The notes beneath the pieces were generated by a model. That model did no database searches, was not told the origin of the DNA, and saw nothing but the letters and a program-made list of their open reading frames with translations. Below are positions 37,953 to 64,000 of a stretch of DNA of 64,000 nt, piece after piece; position 1 is the stretch's first letter, and each line of letters opens with the position of its first letter. A program made the position numbers and the translations under genes. Location: assembly GCF_044704955.1 (NCBI RefSeq), contig NC_091999.1, forward strand, positions 23,064,001 to 23,128,000, in the 5' to 3' direction. The stretch comes from Pristiophorus japonicus (lineage: Eukaryota).

Positions 37953-38253
37953 ATTCTCAATCAACAGAAATAGACGGCGCTGTATTCATTTTCTGCTACA
38001 AAAATTGACAAAGGAAAAATTAATATTCATTTAAATGACGAGCATCGAATTATCCTCTTGCAAAATCGGCACCAATTTCCCTGGTGTTATTGCGGTATAA
38101 GGTAAACTGCGTTGCCGGGATCAGGTGCAGGCGTACCAGTAACGATCTGGATCTTCGGAACTGGTGTTGTAAGTGCATTTATTTCAGGTTTATCTCCTTC
38201 ATATACCGTCATCTCATATTGAGGCTGCATTACCGAACTCCATTGGATTTTAC
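37953..38253 (-). pseudogene. TCR delta/alpha-type V pseudogene (TRDV3-like), same orientation as IgM
   Basis: After the TATACAG acceptor, stitched across frameshifts: SVMQPQYEMTVYEGDKPEI/CTYNTSSEDPDRYWY/..TQFTLYRNNTREIGADFARG*FDARHL../SAVYFC*LR; GTAAGT donor at 38324-38329 gives a 76-nt intron. Confidence 0.8.
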
Positions 38254-38334
38254 CTGTATAACTTATTTAAATCATCAGTTATTGTCCTTCTTAATTAGCA
38301 TAATTTAAACCAGCGCAGGGAACACTTACCACGA

Positions 38335-38505
38335 CGTACCTGCTACCGAGATTATTCTGGTGAAATACATCGGCTATTATGAAGGTAATATATTTTGCCA
38401 GAGATGTTTCTCTGCAGATCTTTAAATTGTGACTAAGTTTACCGGTTTAACCATCTCTGGGCTGCAGATGACCGAACCTGCAATTTATTAACGTGCCCTG
38501 GGACT
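38335..38505 (+). pseudogene. Second TCR alpha/delta-type V, 3' half only, inverted relative to IgM
   Basis: FSADL*IVTKFTGLTISGLQMTEPAIY*RALG matches FR3 (..LTISGLQLTDSAVYYCAL); possible CDR2 YLL.RDYSGE upstream. Confidence 0.75.
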
Positions 38506-38544
38506 CACAGTGATGGAACTCCGTTCAACCCTCGTACAGAACCT
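38506..38544 (+). other. 23-RSS of the inverted TCR V
   Basis: CACAGTG + exactly 23 nt (ATGGAACTCCGTTCAACCCTCGT) + ACAGAACCT. Confidence 0.85.
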
Positions 38545-42004: not shown

Positions 42005-42132
42005 CTTCACCAGAGTGATGGCAGCGCTGTAGGAAATGCTCAGGAAGAACAAGATGATGAATGTGGAAGCGGTTGTCCAGATGTTGCTGCTCTCGTCCTC
42101 ATACTCTTCAATCCACATGTGGTCTGAGGAAT
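42005..42132 (-). pseudogene. IgM TM1 exon, intact
   Basis: CCCATAG|DSSDHMWIEEYEDESSNIWTTASTFIILFFLSISYSAAITLVK|GTGAG (CART motif). Confidence 0.95.
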
Positions 42133-44961: not shown

Positions 44962-45353
44962 TCATTGATAAGAGTTCATGTTGTCCATCAGAACAAGGGA
45001 AATATTCACAAAACTGGGTTTACCTCTGGATTTATTGACGGTTCTGTTGGTGATCTTCAAGGAGATCGCTTCATGTCCCACCACACAGGAGTAAGAGGCG
45101 CCGCGGGCCCACTCCTCGGCTGCAATGGATAGCAGGCTGTACACAAAGAATGATCTGCTGCCATTCTCCGCCATCACCTCGGTATTCTTGCAGTTGTCGG
45201 AATCCACCGGTTTGTCCTTGTCGATCCATTTGACGAAGTACTCTCGGGGGGAGAAACCTCTCACTAAGCAGGTGAGGCTGACCAACCTCTGAGCAGAGAC
45301 TTCTTCTGCCGAGGGCAGGAGGACAGACACGGCCGGTTCCCGTGGATCTTTCG
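44962..45353 (-). pseudogene. IgM CH4 + secretory tail exon (open)
   Basis: [32 protein letters not shown]...YSCVVGHEA...[19 protein letters not shown]; internal donor G|GTAAA at 45024/45023; AATAAA 44918-44923. Confidence 0.95.
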
Positions 45354-46249
45354 CTGTAGAACAGTTACAATAAAGGCCAATGAACTGGACAGTTCCAGGG
45401 ACAATGGTGGGAGATTTAATCTAATAAAGCAGGCGTGTTGAGGGTGTGGGGGTGATTAAATTGGTAAAAATCGGAATCCCGACATCAACACGACCACTCC
45501 TGGTTGTAATATTGTATTTGAATAATATATTTATAGGAGGCTGGAATCCTCTATTTTAACCTCCATTCGGTGATTAACTGTAGCTGGTCCGGTTTGACAC
45601 ACTATGTAAATCCCAGCAGTTACAGCGATGCGGGGACTGCTGCACCCAAGTGGTTATTGCCCTTACACCTCCCTCCTGGATCCAGGGTCCCTGCCTAACC
45701 CACCCCCCGCGATCCGAGAGCTCCTCACTAGGCTTCCAATCCTCCTCTTCTCCCGGGTGGCCTGTGAGACGACCACCACCAACTCGCCTTCTCCGTTTAA
45801 ATTCGCCAATGTCCCGTAGTTACACGTCAGAGAAATGTGCTCTTCGTTGACATTTAACGCTTTATTATTTCCCCTCTGTGACCTCTCTGGTTTACCATCC
45901 CGCAACAGAGTGAACATAATCTTTCTCTCTGAAATCTTTAAGGGTTGGACTTGAATTTACTGCACAGATCAAGGCGATTTGGCCAACCGGTCTATGCCTA
46001 TGTTTATGCTCCATACAAGCATCCACCTGACTCAGTTCATCTAACCCAAATAACATACCCTTGTATTCCTTTCTCGCTCATGGACTTATCCAGTTTCCCC
46101 TAAAACACATAACCTCAGGTCCAAGAGTGGGATTACCAAACTGAATGATCAGACTATTCCATTAAACACTTTATATAATGAATTGGCCCTTGCACAGGCA
46201 CCGTAAATAGTCACAGTATCTCACTTATTGCAACAATCTCCCCGCTCAC

Positions 46250-46558
46250 CCTTTGCCTTGTGGATGGAATCTCTGAGAGGAGTCGGCATATCCTGATGGC
46301 TCACCACGCAGTAGAACTTATCCCCACTCAGCCAGTCTTGTGTCGAGATGTCTAAGTTGCTGATCACGCTGCTGGGATCCTCTCCGTGTTGGACGGCAAT
46401 CTCTGATTTCAAAGCCTCCTTTTCTCAGGTCCAGGACACGGTGAGCCCATAAGGAGCGTCAGACACGACGAAGGTTAAGGTCACCGTCGCCTCCAGTAAG
46501 TCCTGTGCCAGTTACTGTGGGCGAAGAGTGATTTTTGAATCGCTGCATGGGACATCCA
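46250..46558 (-). pseudogene. IgM CH3 exon, inactivated
   Basis: TTTTGCAG|..LLEATVTLTF(C lost)[32 protein letters not shown]|GTGAG; TAA 46512-46514, TGA 46425-46427. Confidence 0.93.
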
Positions 46559-47267
46559 CTGCAAAACAGGAATGAAAGTCAGGAAAAGCTGCAGCTTCAA
46601 AATCAGGACACCAATATTTAGCCTTAACTCTTTCAAGGGGGATAAATCACTTTTGAGATATCAACCTCTCGCTGTTGCTTTAACACCGGCGTTATTGGAA
46701 GGACAATGAATTGGCACCGATTCCGGGAGATCTGTACCAATTCCTGTGTATTTGCAGCCAGAGCCACCTGGAATGGGCTGTGAAACAAATAACCGGTGTA
46801 AAATGGGAATACAATGTGGTGCAATTGTGCTAGGCACTGAATAGCGCTGTTGCTGAAATCCCTTGCTCCTTTATACTCATCTATAGATCCTTGCATCCAA
46901 AGGCATCTCCGCTGGTTATAATAGTGAAGCCCAAATAGCCCGAAGGTCAAGAGGTCTACACCAGCATTACTCTGGTTCAAAACAAGTGTCAAATTAATTT
47001 CAGGATTTATGGGACAACAGGAAACAAAGTTAAGTTTCTGGTCACTTGCTGTGATCTTTATTGCGGTGAAAATGTACAGGAACCAGTCACAGCCCCCGTC
47101 AGAGGAGAAGTGCAAGGTCAGGAGAATGAAGTTCCAAGGGGTCTTTTGTGGTGGGGCATCATTTGTAATGATGTGAGGTAGTTTGTTAATTTCTGTCATT
47201 ATTGAACATTTATCATGTCTGGTGAGAGAGAGTCAGAGTTAAATATGACCTCAGGGCATTACTAGCA

Positions 47268-48526: not shown

Positions 48527-48844
48527 CCGGAGATCTGGTGAAGTTACGGCTTTGCTTGACCCCTTCATGACTGACCTGGCAGGTGTCGACCGAGCCGGTG
48601 AACAATTCCCCGTCGGGGACTGTCAGCCGACTGGCCGCCGAGAAGTTCCCGTTCACCTCAAAGACGGGAGAGGTGACAGAGCCCAAATCCAGGAGTTGTC
48701 CTCTCTCCAGCCAATTCACGGTCATTGATTTTGGTCGGAAATGGATGATTGAACACACGGCGCTTGCATATCTGCTGCTGGTGATTTGTTCAGTAGAACT
48801 CAGCGTGAGGAGAACAGTTGGAGGGATGCTGTCGCGTTCAGGAT
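48527..48844 (-). pseudogene. IgM CH2 exon (open frame)
   Basis: TTGAAG|..IPPTVLLT..SAVCSIIHFRPKSMTVNW..FSAASRLTV..TCQVSH..|GTAAG. Confidence 0.93.
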
Positions 48845-49029
48845 CTTCAAGAGAAGACAAATTATTGACATTGCTTGCAAAAGCAATCATTAAAAAATGC
48901 AAAGTGTCCTTATATTTTAACAAGTTCTTCGCTGTCAGCCTAACACTTAACTGGCATTTACAGAGAGCAGAACTGTGCACAGTCTTCTCAGTGTAATCTG
49001 CAAACCGGAACTGTGCATAATACTCTTAG

Positions 49030-49420
49030 TATGATCTGGAGACCAGAACTTTACACAGTATTCCAAGAGTGATTAGGAGACCAGAACTGTAAACAATATT
49101 CTTAGTATGATATGGAGACCTGAACTGTGGACAGTATTCTAAATGTGATATGGAAACCAGAACTGTGCATAATATTCTAAGTATGATAGGGAGACCAGAA
49201 CTATACACAGTATTTTAATTGTGATAGGGGAGACCAGAACGGTGCACAGTATTATAAGTGCGATAGGGAGACCAGAACTATACACAGTACTCTAAGTGTG
49301 ATATGGAGAACAGGACTGTACACAGCATTCTAAGTGTAATATAGACACCAGAACTGTACACAGCACTCTAAGAGTCGTCTAACCAAATGTCTGTACAATT
49401 TGAACATATCTTCTCATCTT
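49030..49420 (-). repeat. 38-bp minisatellite (~9 copies) amplified from CR1 ORF2
   Basis: GGAGACCAGAACTGTACACAGTATTCTAAGTGTGATAT units; compare CR1 8145-8178. Confidence 0.85.
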
Positions 49421-49453: not shown

Positions 49454-49641
49454 CTGGCATTGTGATGGCCCAGACCGACACACCACGTCAAACCTCGCAG
49501 TAGATTGTGCTGCTGCACACCTCTGACTCGGTGATGGTTAACCGGCTCTTTATCTTTCTTCCAGTAAAGGCTGGTGATTTTATCTTTCTTCCAGGAAAAG
49601 CTGGTGATTTTGGGGGAGTAGTCCATCGCCAAACAGCGGAA
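49454..49641 (-). pseudogene. IgM CH1 exon remnant
   Basis: FRCLAMDYSPKITSFSWKKDK-ITSLYWKKDK-EP / LTITESEVCSSTIYCEV*RG..|GTTAGT; 5' end and acceptor not found. Confidence 0.88.
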
Positions 49642-49809
49642 GCAGTTTCTCCCTACTCAGCGCACTTTGATCTGGGCTGTATTCCATCCTATTGAATGGA
49701 CGTCTCTTGTGTTTCCTCCTTCCTCCCACTCAATAAATAATCCGAATTAAATACCATTCCAAAATCCGGTTAACTGGAAGTTTCCCCTTAAAACGTCCCA
49801 TTTCAATTC

Positions 49810-52590: not shown

Positions 52591-55170
52591 TACAGTCTCT
52601 CCGTGGTGTTTCTTAATGTCACAATCTGGGTTATTGATCTCATTTCTGAGGCGCCTCCTCAACCTTAAAGTCAATCTTTCAAGTTTCTTCCATATTCAGT
52701 TTCTTAAATAACTGAGTCAAATGACAATCCCCGCATTGCAGGATCACAACCTAGAAAGTTTACAACCAGTGAGCAGGACTCCTGATTCGCACAGTGTGCA
52801 GGCGCACAGAAACAGAACAGACACATACGCTGCAACAACGGTGCTCGAGGCAGAGAGACCAGTTCAACCTATTAATTTCAATGAAGCTGTTTGATTTCTA
52901 ATATATTTCTTGTCAATTTCCAACCACCTCAACTCTGCAGATTCTTTGAAATTAAACTGATATTAATTTGAGAAACATCCAGCCATTTCTCCCTCTCTGT
53001 CGACAATCTTGTAAATTGCATAAAAATTAATTTCCCTGAAAACAAGTATCTGGAAATGATTCACTTTCCACGGTAATTCGCTGCCCGTCACATGGGACTC
53101 AGTGACAGAATAAGAATGCTAAAATCCAGGAAACATCTACATTGAAATCTGACCACCCACTGATTTGATATATTTTCATCAGTAAATATAACCTATAAAA
53201 ATCTTCGAGGCAAAACACGAAGTTAATTCACTAAAATCTGCTGCAGCACCTTATCGAACTCAGCACAGCCGGGTTATAAATGCATTATTTTATAAATTAA
53301 TTTAGGAATTAATTAAACATTCTTTCCAACCATTGAGGTTTTGTAATAACTATAATACGGACCAGGATGCAAGAGATCGTTTATGTTTAATAAATTAGCA
53401 CTGATTTTACATTCTAAATTATGTTCATGTCAGTTGATTATGTAAAATAATCTGAGTGCCTGCCTGGCCTTTCCTCCTCAGAAGCACATGTACCTGGAAT
53501 TATTGAAATTAATTTAACGTGCTTGAATTTCAGCCTTACTAATACAATTAGTTAATAATAATTTTAAAGCCTTTTTCTGCCTGGTAACTTGTGAAGGAAT
53601 AACAAATTTCGTCTGCACGGTAAAGATTTCATACCCCCGAAGATAAATTAAATTGACAAAATGCAATTTACAACACGGCTTTAAGTTATAATTTAATACA
53701 TCCTGTTATTCATCTGTGTAAACTGGAGGTAGCAAGTAATTTAACATCCTAATCAAACTGAACCCAGCGGTGGAATCAGTATATTGTCAGTGAAATAATT
53801 GTACGCATAATTACTAACTGCATCCAGCCTCTAAAAGTTTCTGCTCCCGTTAATGGAGCACAGTGTACAGCAGGATTTTGCAAGTCGAATAATATTAAGT
53901 AAATTTACATTGATATTATAACATATTTTAATAATATTGAGAGATATTATCGCGTTATAATCGTTTGGTTAATATTAATTTAAAGCAACAACAACCTGAA
54001 CAAGTTAATTATATAGCTGTTAATTACAGTTTCATTTCACACTGTAAATATCAGCATGTAAACATAGATTAATATTTGAATACATAATTGTCACTTCAAT
54101 AATTGTTATGTTAAACTACCCATCAATGGTTTCTGATTTCTAAACCATCCTGATCTCTGCCTACAATCTGCTTTCCAACAGTTTCAAACATATATCGTGT
54201 TTGCATTGCATCAGAAACCTGCTGCTGCCCCCTGTCACCAACGTTAAACATTGTAGAAACGCCAAACAGTTTCACAAATTGTAGGTATTCTGAGTAACAG
54301 AGGCACAAACTCTCTGAGCAGATCGACACTAAATCACATCACTGAGGGGCGGAATCCCTCCACAGAACTTTTCATGGAGCAGACCCTTCATTCTATAAAC
54401 CCTTTCAGCAGAATCAAATGTATCATTGTAAAAAGTCTCATTAGAGAATCACTGAATCCGCCTAACACTGAAATAACCAATGATTGAATTCAACAGAAAT
54501 ATAAAAACAATGACAGCAGAATTGTTATTAGCCGAATCATGCTAAATAAATTAACGTTGAAATTATAGCATATTTTAATAATACTGCGTGATATTACTAC
54601 ATTATAGTAATGTTAATAATATTAATTTAAAACTGTTCCAGCTGCAAATGTATTAATGTTTTAGTTCTTAATTTCAGTAACACATCACCTATTGAATCTG
54701 AGCGTTTGGGAACATTCGCTCAGTAGAATACAATGTATTTTTTAGAAAACCTTTACAGTCCTTAAGATTATATACCGAGTTCTAAGCTTTCTGTTTCGTG
54801 CCTACAATGTTCTTTCAAACATATTTAAAAACAATGTTTGCATTCGATCAGAAAAACTGCAGCAATCAGAGGTCACCGAGATTAAACATTGCAGAAACGT
54901 CAGACAGTGTAACTACCGTTAGGTAGTTATAGTAACCCAGGCACACAGTCTCGACACCAGATCAACACCAAATCACATCAACAACATGTTCTGTGGAGAA
55001 ACTGTTGAATTATATAATCACGTTGTAGCAGAATTACGTGAAATTTGAAAAATTTCCATGGACAATCCAACAAAAACAAGATTCAGTGAACGAAATAATT
55101 ATTGAAATAAACAGAAATATAAAATAAAGACACATATACAACAGTTACTGAATGAGTGAATGTTCCTTAC

Positions 55171-55237
55171 CTGCAGTCACCGTCACCATAGTCCCTTGTC
55201 CCCAGTAGTCAAAATAGTTGTATCCTCTCCCGTAGTA
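55171..55237 (-). other. Germline-joined D(D)JH segment, open: YYGRGYNYFDYWGQGTMVTVTA
   Basis: WGQG motif, G|GTAAG donor, no RSS between the D-like 5' part and J. Confidence 0.88.
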
Positions 55238-55265
55238 CACAGTGATAGGAACCCGTACAAATACT
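55238..55265 (+). other. 12-RSS 5' of the joined DJ
   Basis: CACAGTG-ATAGGAACCCGT (12)-ACAAATACT. Confidence 0.93.
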
Positions 55266-55655
55266 GAACACTTTCTGTTCAGTACTGACTTTCAACATTC
55301 ACTTCAAATAGACATTCGCTTCAAATAGATATTAATTGCTGATCAAGTTTAGAATTGAACCAACAGTTTACACAACACAGTTCCAACCAGCTCCCTCCAT
55401 GAACCAGACACAGTGATTCGAGCATCATGTCCAGCTCTAAAATTGCTGATACTGTTAACATTAAACAGGAGCAAAACCAAAACCTCCCCGCAGTAGATCG
55501 GTTAGTGTGTTAGATTTTCACCATTGAATTCTCAGTGTCCTAGTTTTGTAAGAAGCGGTTTGTGGTCTGGTTCTGAACATTGCCGTTAACATTGCATTTG
55601 ATACAATTACTGACCGTCAGGTTATGATGGAAGTTTGTTGAATTACCGCTCGATC

Positions 55656-55694
55656 TGTTCTTGTATGGGTTCAGCCCTGATTCCTCTCGCTGTG
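55656..55694 (-). other. 23-RSS of VH
   Basis: CACAGCG-23 nt-ACAAGAACA. Confidence 0.93.
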
Positions 55695-55998
55695 GTCCCT
55701 GGCACATTAACAGATGGCGGTGTCTTCGCTCATCAGGTTCTTCATGTCCAACGCAAAGATGTTGCTTGAACTGTCTTTGGACGCAGTAAATCGGCTCTGA
55801 ATCCCTGGGGCGTAAATTTTGTTCGATGAACTGGAATATCTAATCAGCCAATCCAGCCCCTGTCCGGGAAACTGGCGGACCCAGTTCATGCCATAGCTGC
55901 CAAGATCGAAACCGCTGGTTTTACAGGTCAGTCTCAGAGAGCATCCGGAAATCCGGGTTTCTGCCTCGGGCTGAGTCAACACCACATCCGACTGGCAC
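55695..55998 (-). pseudogene. VH exon, inactivated
   Basis: [58 protein letters not shown]; TAA at 55707-55709; apparent 1-nt deletion just after the acceptor puts V out of frame with the leader. Confidence 0.95.
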
Positions 55999-56123
55999 CT
56001 ATAAAATTAAGCAAAGAACCCGAGGATTAATCCTGGTGAAATGATTCCTGACTCTTTAAAATTCCAGAGAGACTAACACTGAGAGAGTAATAGTAAGGGA
56101 CTTGGACAACAAAATCTACTCAC

Positions 56124-56169
56124 GGGAAAATAAAGCCACTAACAGACTGAGTGAAATCGCCGACCTCAT
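56124..56169 (-). pseudogene. VH leader exon
   Basis: MRSAISLSLLVALFS + C|GTGAGT, 46 nt, phase 1. Confidence 0.93.
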
Positions 56170-61759: not shown

Positions 61760-62480
61760 CTGGTGTAATATAAAGAGTGACATTAGCGAGTGTAATATAA
61801 ACAGAGACAGTGCCTAGGTTAATATAAACAGAGACAGAGCCTAGTGTATTATAAGAGAGACATAGTCCAGTGTAATATAAACAGGGACAGGATCTACTGT
61901 AATATAAACCGAGACAGGGTCGAGTGTAATATAAACAGAGACAGAGTCTAGCTTAATATAAACAGCGACAGGGTCGAGTGTAATTTAAACGGAGACAGGG
62001 TCTAGTGTAGTATAAACAGAGACATAGTCTAGTGTAATAGAAACAAGAACAGGATCTACTGTAATATAAACCGAGAAAGGGTCTACTGTAATATAAAAAG
62101 GGACAGAAACTACTGTAATATAAACAGAGTCAGGGCCGTGTAATATAAAGTGAGACAGTCTATAGTGTAATATAAACAGAAACAGGGTCCAGTGTAATAT
62201 AAACAGAGACAGGGTCTAAAGTAATATAAAGAGAAACAGGGCCTAGTGTAATATAAACAGAGACAGGGTCGACTGTAATATAAACAGAGACAGGATCCAA
62301 TGTAATATAAACAGAGACAAGGTCGAGTGCATTATAAACAGGGACAGGATCTACTGTAATATAAATCGAGACAGCGTCTAGTGTAACATAAACGGAGACA
62401 GGGTCTAGGTTAATATAAAGAGCGACAGAGTATAGTGTAATATAAAGCGAGGCAGGGTATAATGTAGTTATAACTGAGAC
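61760..62480 (+). repeat. 27-bp satellite, left arm
   Basis: GTGTAATATAAACAGAGACAGGGTCTA units. Confidence 0.95.
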
Positions 62481-62879
62481 GGTGCATAGGAAAATGTTGA
62501 AAAAAATCCTAAGACGCTTAAACAAATTTATTATCGACACAAGCGGCCTTACCATTAAATACCACATCCCAAGCGGCTGGAATCCCGAACAATGCTTTCT
62601 GCAGCTGCAGGTATTGTCACTTGGCGATGCGGCAGAGGCCGGTTCTGAAGTTTGGATCCTAAGTGCTACTGGATCTCTGTGCTGTCTGATGATGTCATGA
62701 TCTTCGGCCGCAGGAGATCGTGGCGGTCGAGATTACTGCCGCCAGAAACCACCATGACAATTTCTCGGGCATTGCTACTCTCGCCACCCATATTGTACAG
62801 CCGGTAATGCCCATTATCGCCGTCTCCAGAAACGCTAATGAGAATCGTAAAGTATGTCCATTGTTGCTCATTTACCTGA

Positions 62880-64000
62880 GAGTAGACCTTCTCTCTATTT
62901 ATATTACGCTAGGATCTAGCTCTGTTTATATTACACTAAACCCTATCCCTGTTTATATTACACCAGATCCTGTCTCTGTATATATTACACGAGACCCTGT
63001 CTCTTTTTATAATACACTGGACCCTCTCTCTGTTTATATTACACTAGACCCTGTCTCTGTTTATATTACACTAGATCCTGTCTCTGTTTATATTCCCCAA
63101 GATCCTGTCTCTGTTTATATTACACTAGACCCTGTCCCTATTTATATTACACAAGATCCTGTCTCAGTTTTCATTACACTAGACCCTGTCTTATTTTATG
63201 TTACACACGGCCCTGTCTCTGTTTATATTACACGAATCTCTGCCTCTGTTTATATTACACATGGCCCTGTCTCTGTTTATATTACGCGATACCCTATCTC
63301 TGTTTATATTACACGAGGCCATGTCTCAGTTATTAATGCACGATACCCTTTGCTATATTATGTTGGACCCTGTCACTGTTTATATTACACTATCCCCTGT
63401 CTTTTTATGTTAGATTATACCCTGTCTCCGTTTATATTACACTAGACCCTCTTTCTTTTTAAATTACACTAGACCCTGTCGCTGTTTCTATTACACTAGA
63501 TCCTGTCTCTCTTTATATTACACGAGACACTGTCCCAGTTTATATTGTACTAGATCCTGTCTATATTTATCTTACACTGGACCCATTTTTAATTATATTA
63601 CACGAGACCCTGTCTCTGTAAACATTACATTGGACCCTGTCTCTCTATATTACACTGCTTTCTGTCCCTGTTTATATTACACTAGACCCTCTTGCTGTTT
63701 ATATTACACTAGACCCTGTCCCTGTTTCTATTACACTAGACCCTGTCTCTGTTTATATTACACTAGCCCCTATCTCTGTTAATATTACACTAGACCATGT
63801 CCCTGTTTACATTACCCTAGACCCTGTCTCTGTTTATATTACACTAGACCCTGTCCCTGTTTATATTACACTAGACCCTGTCCCTATTTATATTACACTA
63901 GACCCTGCCACTGTTTATATTACCATAGACCCTGTTTCTGTTTATGTTACACGGGACCCTGTATTTTATATATTACACAAGACGCTGTCTCTGTTTACAT
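62880..64000 (-). repeat. 27-bp satellite, right arm (inverted), runs off the window
   Basis: TAGACCCTGTCTCTGTTTATATTACAC units. Confidence 0.95.

Follow-up and report, generated by a model that had tools for sequence, protein, structure and literature searches.

Analysis of the 64-kb window, the whole stretch of DNA considered here, revealed a decayed elasmobranch IgM cluster with V left unjoined and a D unit already fused to J. We favor, as the reasonably probable reading, a coding joint that was inherited and for which RAG was probably responsible. Read along the minus strand, the elements are V, 23-RSS, 390 bp, 12-RSS, 18–19 nt, and J, in this order. The V coding end at position 55695 is flanked by a 23-spacer RSS (55656..55694, minus strand) with one heptamer and two nonamer mismatches, and a 12-spacer RSS with a perfect heptamer and two nonamer mismatches (55238..55265, plus strand) faces V as the 5' RSS of the D unit. 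The 390 bp between the two nonamers (55266..55655, minus strand) is most likely a V-D1 interval. The D unit of 18–19 nt (55219..55237, minus strand) runs directly into the JH segment (FDYWGQGTMVTVTA; 55171..55218, minus strand), which carries no RSS of its own and is followed by a GT donor at 55170. Two free D segments with a spacing of about 400 bp, as expected of an elasmobranch IgM minicluster, are absent here; as in partly germline-joined IgH clusters, the segments are fused and the inner RSS removed. V is not joined to D, as it is in the VD-J, VDD-J, VD-DJ, and VDJ germline forms, and keeps its 23-RSS.

The preliminary description had recognized two credible RSS between V and J, the 23-RSS of V and a 12-RSS about 390 bp away, and a D fused to J directly after the latter. 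The RSS scans agreed on both points: only these two credible RSS were found between V and J, with neither a J-RSS nor a second free D with its RSS left in that region. The 12-RSS was the sole match at two or fewer mismatches in the 64-kb window (shuffle mean 0.03; at least one match in 3 of 100 shuffles). The 23-RSS is by count alone not beyond chance, since two matches at three or fewer mismatches occurred in the window against a shuffle mean of 0.76, and 19 of 100 shuffles reached two; it is credible by its position exactly at the V end. Its letters also resemble those that flank V in a gene model of bamboo shark (P0009). One further RSS-like match from a looser scan, at 55537 (22-letter spacer, 2 + 2 mismatches), has the same orientation as the V RSS and no partner, and was not considered credible. 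The DJ was also described beforehand as in-frame; it is indeed open in the J frame (YYGRGYNYFDYWGQG), but this carries no weight while V is unjoined.

Canonical shark clusters are described as having two D segments at a spacing of about 400 bp (PMC2435157, available text), and the length of the interval between V and the 12-RSS fits this spacing. Contigs from paralogs align along it. Eight nurse shark primers were also compared with the window, and none of the six intersegmental ones was significant singly in the interval (null fractions 0.075–0.99). The V-D primer pair matched at 22 of 34 letters and lay 338 bp apart versus 352 bp, a score attained at 8 start positions over both strands of the window and weak only, since the match was spotted by eye before testing. 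The D-J primer pair matched at 12 of 17 and 12 of 18 letters, but 83 bp apart versus the 239 bp expected. The primer match at both ends weakly supports the interval being V-D1.

The surrounding exons identify the locus as an elasmobranch IgM heavy-chain minicluster. A 46-nt leader exon of phase 1 (56124..56169, minus strand; ATG at 56169, donor at 56123) is near-identical in kind to the leader of horn shark HV01 (P0010). The VH exon (55695..55998, minus strand) is an IgM-type pseudogene with a Pfam V-set match (E 5e-9) and 71% identity to Heterodontus HV01; among the 14 homologs returned, the best were proteins of bamboo shark, horn shark (HV01, 71%), and catshark. A PDB search with V returned generic antibody V domains only, and a metagenome scan with the V protein gave two loci among 238 candidate stretches, both 55–56% identical and bony-fish-like VH with no D-RSS close by, which were set aside. 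Downstream, and oriented alike, a short segment with an internal duplication and no intact exon (49560..49650, limits approximate, minus strand) is presumably a CH1 remnant, an assignment made partly from shark IgM motifs. It is followed by a CH2 exon with an open frame (48528..48842, minus strand; Pfam C1-set, E 7.8e-11), a CH3 exon (46248..46560, minus strand), and an open CH4 with secretory tail (44965..45345, minus strand; Pfam C1-set, E 7.8e-19) that shares 73% identity with a C mu 4 fragment of sandbar shark and 71% with a bamboo shark model. The open exon at 42005..42132 (minus strand), with no Pfam match above the cut-off, is a putative IgM transmembrane exon 1. The locus thus comprises a shark IgM-family VH with split leader and 23-RSS, one JH, C mu 1–4 with CH1 as a remnant only, a secretory tail, and a transmembrane exon.

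Several repeats were observed in and around the cluster. The J-C intron holds a diverged tandem duplication (53866–54340 and 54512–54979, 66% over 483 nt, about 645 bp apart). A 38-bp tandem repeat occupies window positions 48924–49410, between the CH1 remnant and CH2, and a 27-bp satellite array in both orientations lies at 61765–63990.

The cluster is dead, a pseudogene. VH lacks one base in the segment from the splice acceptor to the mature N-terminus, which shifts the frame: 10 nt separate the acceptor from the first mature codon and the leader is of phase 1, so that the spliced frame stops after 22 residues. The only in-phase AG farther upstream (56035) is likewise followed by a stop in its frame. 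In addition, VH contains a TAA at 55709–55707, just before the second cysteine, and V-D trimming could not remove it because the second cysteine would be lost too. At 55995, contigs from paralogs have one more base, and at 55707 and 55711 their letters differ from those of the window. The leader-V and CH1-CH4 frames are not open; with the V frameshift and stop, CH1 reduced to a remnant, and two in-frame stops in CH3 (46514 and 46427), a V-to-DJ step could yield no heavy chain. Thus, of the light-chain-like single-step locus proposed beforehand, the geometry stands, as the RSS allow one 12/23 step, and the working locus does not, with V, CH1, and CH3 broken.

A decayed V exon with stops and frameshifts lies tail to tail with the IgM cluster (window 38100–38544, plus strand) and has a good 23-RSS at 38506–38544 (plus strand). 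This RSS was examined as a second J-type RSS and ruled out, as it flanks the plus-strand V. All 14 of its weak PDB matches (E 0.28–0.99) were TCR chains, nearly all alpha/delta, so the exon is probably a TCR V alpha/delta pseudogene. Like VH, it carries a Tyr-to-TAA change before the position of the second cysteine. Its location at 38.1–38.5 kb fits the TCR alpha/delta-type V exons described between IgH clusters in the available part of PMC12227049.

To evaluate whether the joint is inherited, we turned to sequencing runs. DNA matching the stretch was present in 4 of 7 runs, all from one sample of one study and possibly the assembly's own source; the share of window words in these runs was 0.52–0.55, implying about 98% identity. 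No RNA run was among the four, which is no evidence on expression. A 370-nt contig from DNA runs X1 and X3 covers 55160–55529, joint included, with one other letter and no gap, at a depth of 5.57 in X1 and 12.9 in X3. Only one V contig keeps the window's V stop, at a depth of 5.93 in X1 and 11.3 in X3, and it differs from the window by 19 other letters and 10 gap letters in 662. In agreement with this, the window letter at the V stop position accounted for 5.9 of 309.6 depth units in X1 and 11.2 of 506.8 in X3. The spanning contig and the locus-specific V contig are equal in depth in both runs, which places the joint at the depth of the locus itself, although contig depth is a rough measure, not a copy number, and the two contigs are not physically linked (gap 55530–55602). 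The sequenced copy is probably another haplotype of the locus. A somatic V-DDJ would be clone-specific and far below genomic depth; by this weak measure, the joint stands at the depth of its neighboring V contig. From these contigs, the D-J joint is very probably inherited. The prior proposal that RAG joined D to J in the germ line accordingly keeps its first half, germline inheritance, as probable from contig depth, and RAG as the agent is something we infer from the join at the coding end together with the germline genes in the available text of PMC2193156.

Apparent related joined copies were seen in the same sample. A second contig, with a depth of 19 in X1 and 36.4 in X3, aligns to 55082–55263 with 24 other letters and 4 gap letters; it runs through J, the joint (where it lacks one base, at 55222), and the 12-RSS, and from 55342 it again follows the interval. 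The alignment counts suggest that the genome contains a small number of other, diverged joined copies. DNA run X3 also contains an in-frame V-J joint (55210–55704, depth 8.89) with a short CDR3, likely a candidate for a fully germline-joined VDJ in this species. As this fully joined VDJ occurs in DNA, the genome likely has other germline joins. In gene models derived from the genomes of whale shark (P0016), bamboo shark (P0014), and cloudy catshark (P0013), V runs into CDR3-like or J sequence; these models likely represent germline VDJ or VD joins.

The composition of the 18–19 nt was assessed with runs X5 and X6, which contain J spliced to CH1 and therefore look like RNA runs. One record from X5 and six from X6 aligned to the stretch, none of them 99% alike. 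An X6 contig (depth 6.38) has V joined to J, out of frame, over 30 letters. Aligned by eye, its junction is identical to window 55219–55236 at 15 of 18 letters, ungapped and central bases included. The chance of such a match is 1e-5 to 1e-3 (base-match rates 0.25–0.35, 13 offsets, 3 junctions), and the other two of the three junctions compared showed no such match to the D stretch. X6 contig 19 (depth 40) carries an unjoined J that is spliced to CH1 and preceded by its heptamer and by an in-frame stop, and represents a sterile J-C mu transcript. In this contig 8 nt separate the heptamer from the D-Y-W core, and the 15 spacer letters available contain no nonamer start at spacer 12; in the window, 27 nt precede the core, 19 more. 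Of these, the window J accounts for 8 nt, as many as in the unjoined J. Taken together, the stretch looks like one D unit, either a single germline D or an older D1D2 fusion, with the assignment of bases to D or J resting on one paralogous junction and one partial J flank. The simplest reading of these letters would be that D and J are both near-full and meet with 0–1 added bases, no P nucleotides being demonstrable. The 3' RSS of a canonical D1 has a 22/23 spacer. Such a D1 cannot join J directly, so the unit would have had 12/12 signals, as a single D or as an older D1D2 fusion like that of IgNAR type III (PMC4622739), or D2 would have been trimmed away. Germline light-chain joints described in PMC2193156 (available text) similarly show little N addition and scarce TdT activity. 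The preliminary split of the stretch into D1-like, N, and D2-like parts was not upheld, as its supposed N bases are shared with the X6 junction (15/18).

In the history that we favor, RAG would have cleaved the 3' signal of D and the 5' signal of J in an ancestor, either in one of its germ cells or at an early embryonic stage. A D unit with 12/12 signals may have joined J in one step, or D1 may have done so with D2 trimmed to about nothing. The joint would have been inherited and the joined cassette probably copied by duplication, leaving diverged copies elsewhere; the decay of the present copy may have come before or after the joining. The leftover 23/12 pair would permit one V-to-DJ step, the product of which could here encode no heavy chain.

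Other origins were weighed against this history. An inherited V-DDJ could have arisen by two RAG joins, in which case the letters from the 12-RSS to J would be what is left of D1 and of D2 with N bases between them. Joins of D1 to D2 and of D2 to J would give exactly the RSS layout observed, in keeping with the two D segments of canonical clusters and with V-DDJ as a real RAG product in shark lymphocytes (both in the available text of PMC2435157), and a five-letter D2-like word is common, by eye, to the joined VDJ of X3. However, that five-letter match is not significant, the supposed N bases recur in a paralogous junction at 15 of 18 letters, and germline joints are described as having little TdT activity (PMC2193156, available text), and we consider two joins unlikely. 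Highly unlikely, in our view, is the absence of any RAG coding joint, whether through a plain D-J deletion or through a J that naturally has a 12-RSS and a long 5' end, for example from an RSS-swapping hybrid joint. The locus is decayed and has other indels, hybrid-joint RSS swapping has been proposed for shark clusters (PMC2193153, available text), and the breakpoints can be placed only with an unjoined paralog. Yet a near-full D adjoins a near-full J at coding ends, the unjoined, spliced X6 J, which bears the same species label, is short on its 5' side and shows no spacer-12 nonamer in 15 letters, and the interval upstream of the 12-RSS behaves as V-D sequence, though the primer match behind this is weak.

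The assembly may also have captured lymphocyte DNA that carried a somatic V-DDJ intermediate. Nurse shark thymocytes commonly contain V-DDJ, prominently for Group 5 (PMC2435157, available text), and the stretch was seen in one sample only. Against this stand the contig that crosses the joint unbroken and in each run equals the locus-specific V contig in depth, the diverged second contig with the same layout, and the absence of nurse shark pseudogene rearrangement on Southern blots in that same source. A somatic origin thus seems very improbable indeed.

Germline joining in sharks has been known since the late 1980s. Reported forms comprise VD-J, VD-DJ, and VDJ (PMC5192425); V DD-J, VDJ, and V D1-D2J (PMC2193153); VD and VDD genes (PMC2193156); and VD-J and VDJ (PMC4279169), each in the available text of the source. 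The preliminary list of VD-J and VDJ was thus right as far as it went and incomplete, as VD-DJ and VDD are also published. In the literature searched, outside of which most subscription journals fall, germline V-DDJ was not found; V-DDJ appeared only as a somatic form, in the available text of PMC2435157. The term V-DJ in the available part of PMC7916673 refers to mammalian B cells, not to the shark germline, and was set aside. As far as this literature reaches, a germline V-DJ with a free V is an uncommon and apparently unpublished layout, germline joining itself being long known.

Comparison with known systems disclosed partial likenesses, each drawn from the available text of its source. 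As here, the partly joined IgM clusters of horn shark and little skate are miniclusters with fused segments, the RSS of the fused ends gone and one 12/23 pair left (PMC5192425, PMC2193153, PMC2193156). In those forms V is joined, whereas here V is free, all joining is on the J side (V-DJ or V-DDJ), and the cluster is a pseudogene. The somatic V-DDJ intermediate of nurse shark (PMC2435157) has an identical segment and RSS layout, but that intermediate is specific to single clones, missing from red cell DNA, and diversified by N/P additions, whereas the joint here appears fixed and has an ordinary genomic depth. The IgNAR type III cluster of nurse shark (PMC4622739) has a germline D1-D2 fusion, a free V, and fewer somatic steps; unlike the IgM cluster here, it is functional, expressed in neonates, and has J unjoined. 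The germline-joined NS4 light chains of nurse shark (PMC2193156), with clean RSS removal and little N addition, offer a model for germ-cell RAG. They differ in being complete VJ joints whose bases were assigned through unjoined 99%-identical paralogs.

VD and VDD genes were used to argue that germ-cell recombination differs from lymphocyte recombination (PMC2193156, available text). An inherited V-DJ would fill a missing class, the germline forms in the available text of the papers examined all having V joined, and would fit the 'any order' rule of shark lymphocytes. As a dead copy, the value of this cluster is as a fossil of germ-line RAG activity. More speculatively, and decidedly unlikely in our estimate, there may be a family of V-DJ IgM clusters descended from one germline D-J join by duplication, some of them intact and making a heavy chain by a single V-to-DJ step with a semi-invariant CDR3. 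If so, these heavy chains would be put together in the manner of light chains, their CDR3 having a D-J half that is fixed and a V side that varies. Germline joining would then have proceeded stepwise, D1D2 and then DJ, and germ-cell RAG would not be biased to V-side joins. The finding would gain greater weight if intact paralogs use the remaining step for antibodies with a half-fixed binding loop.
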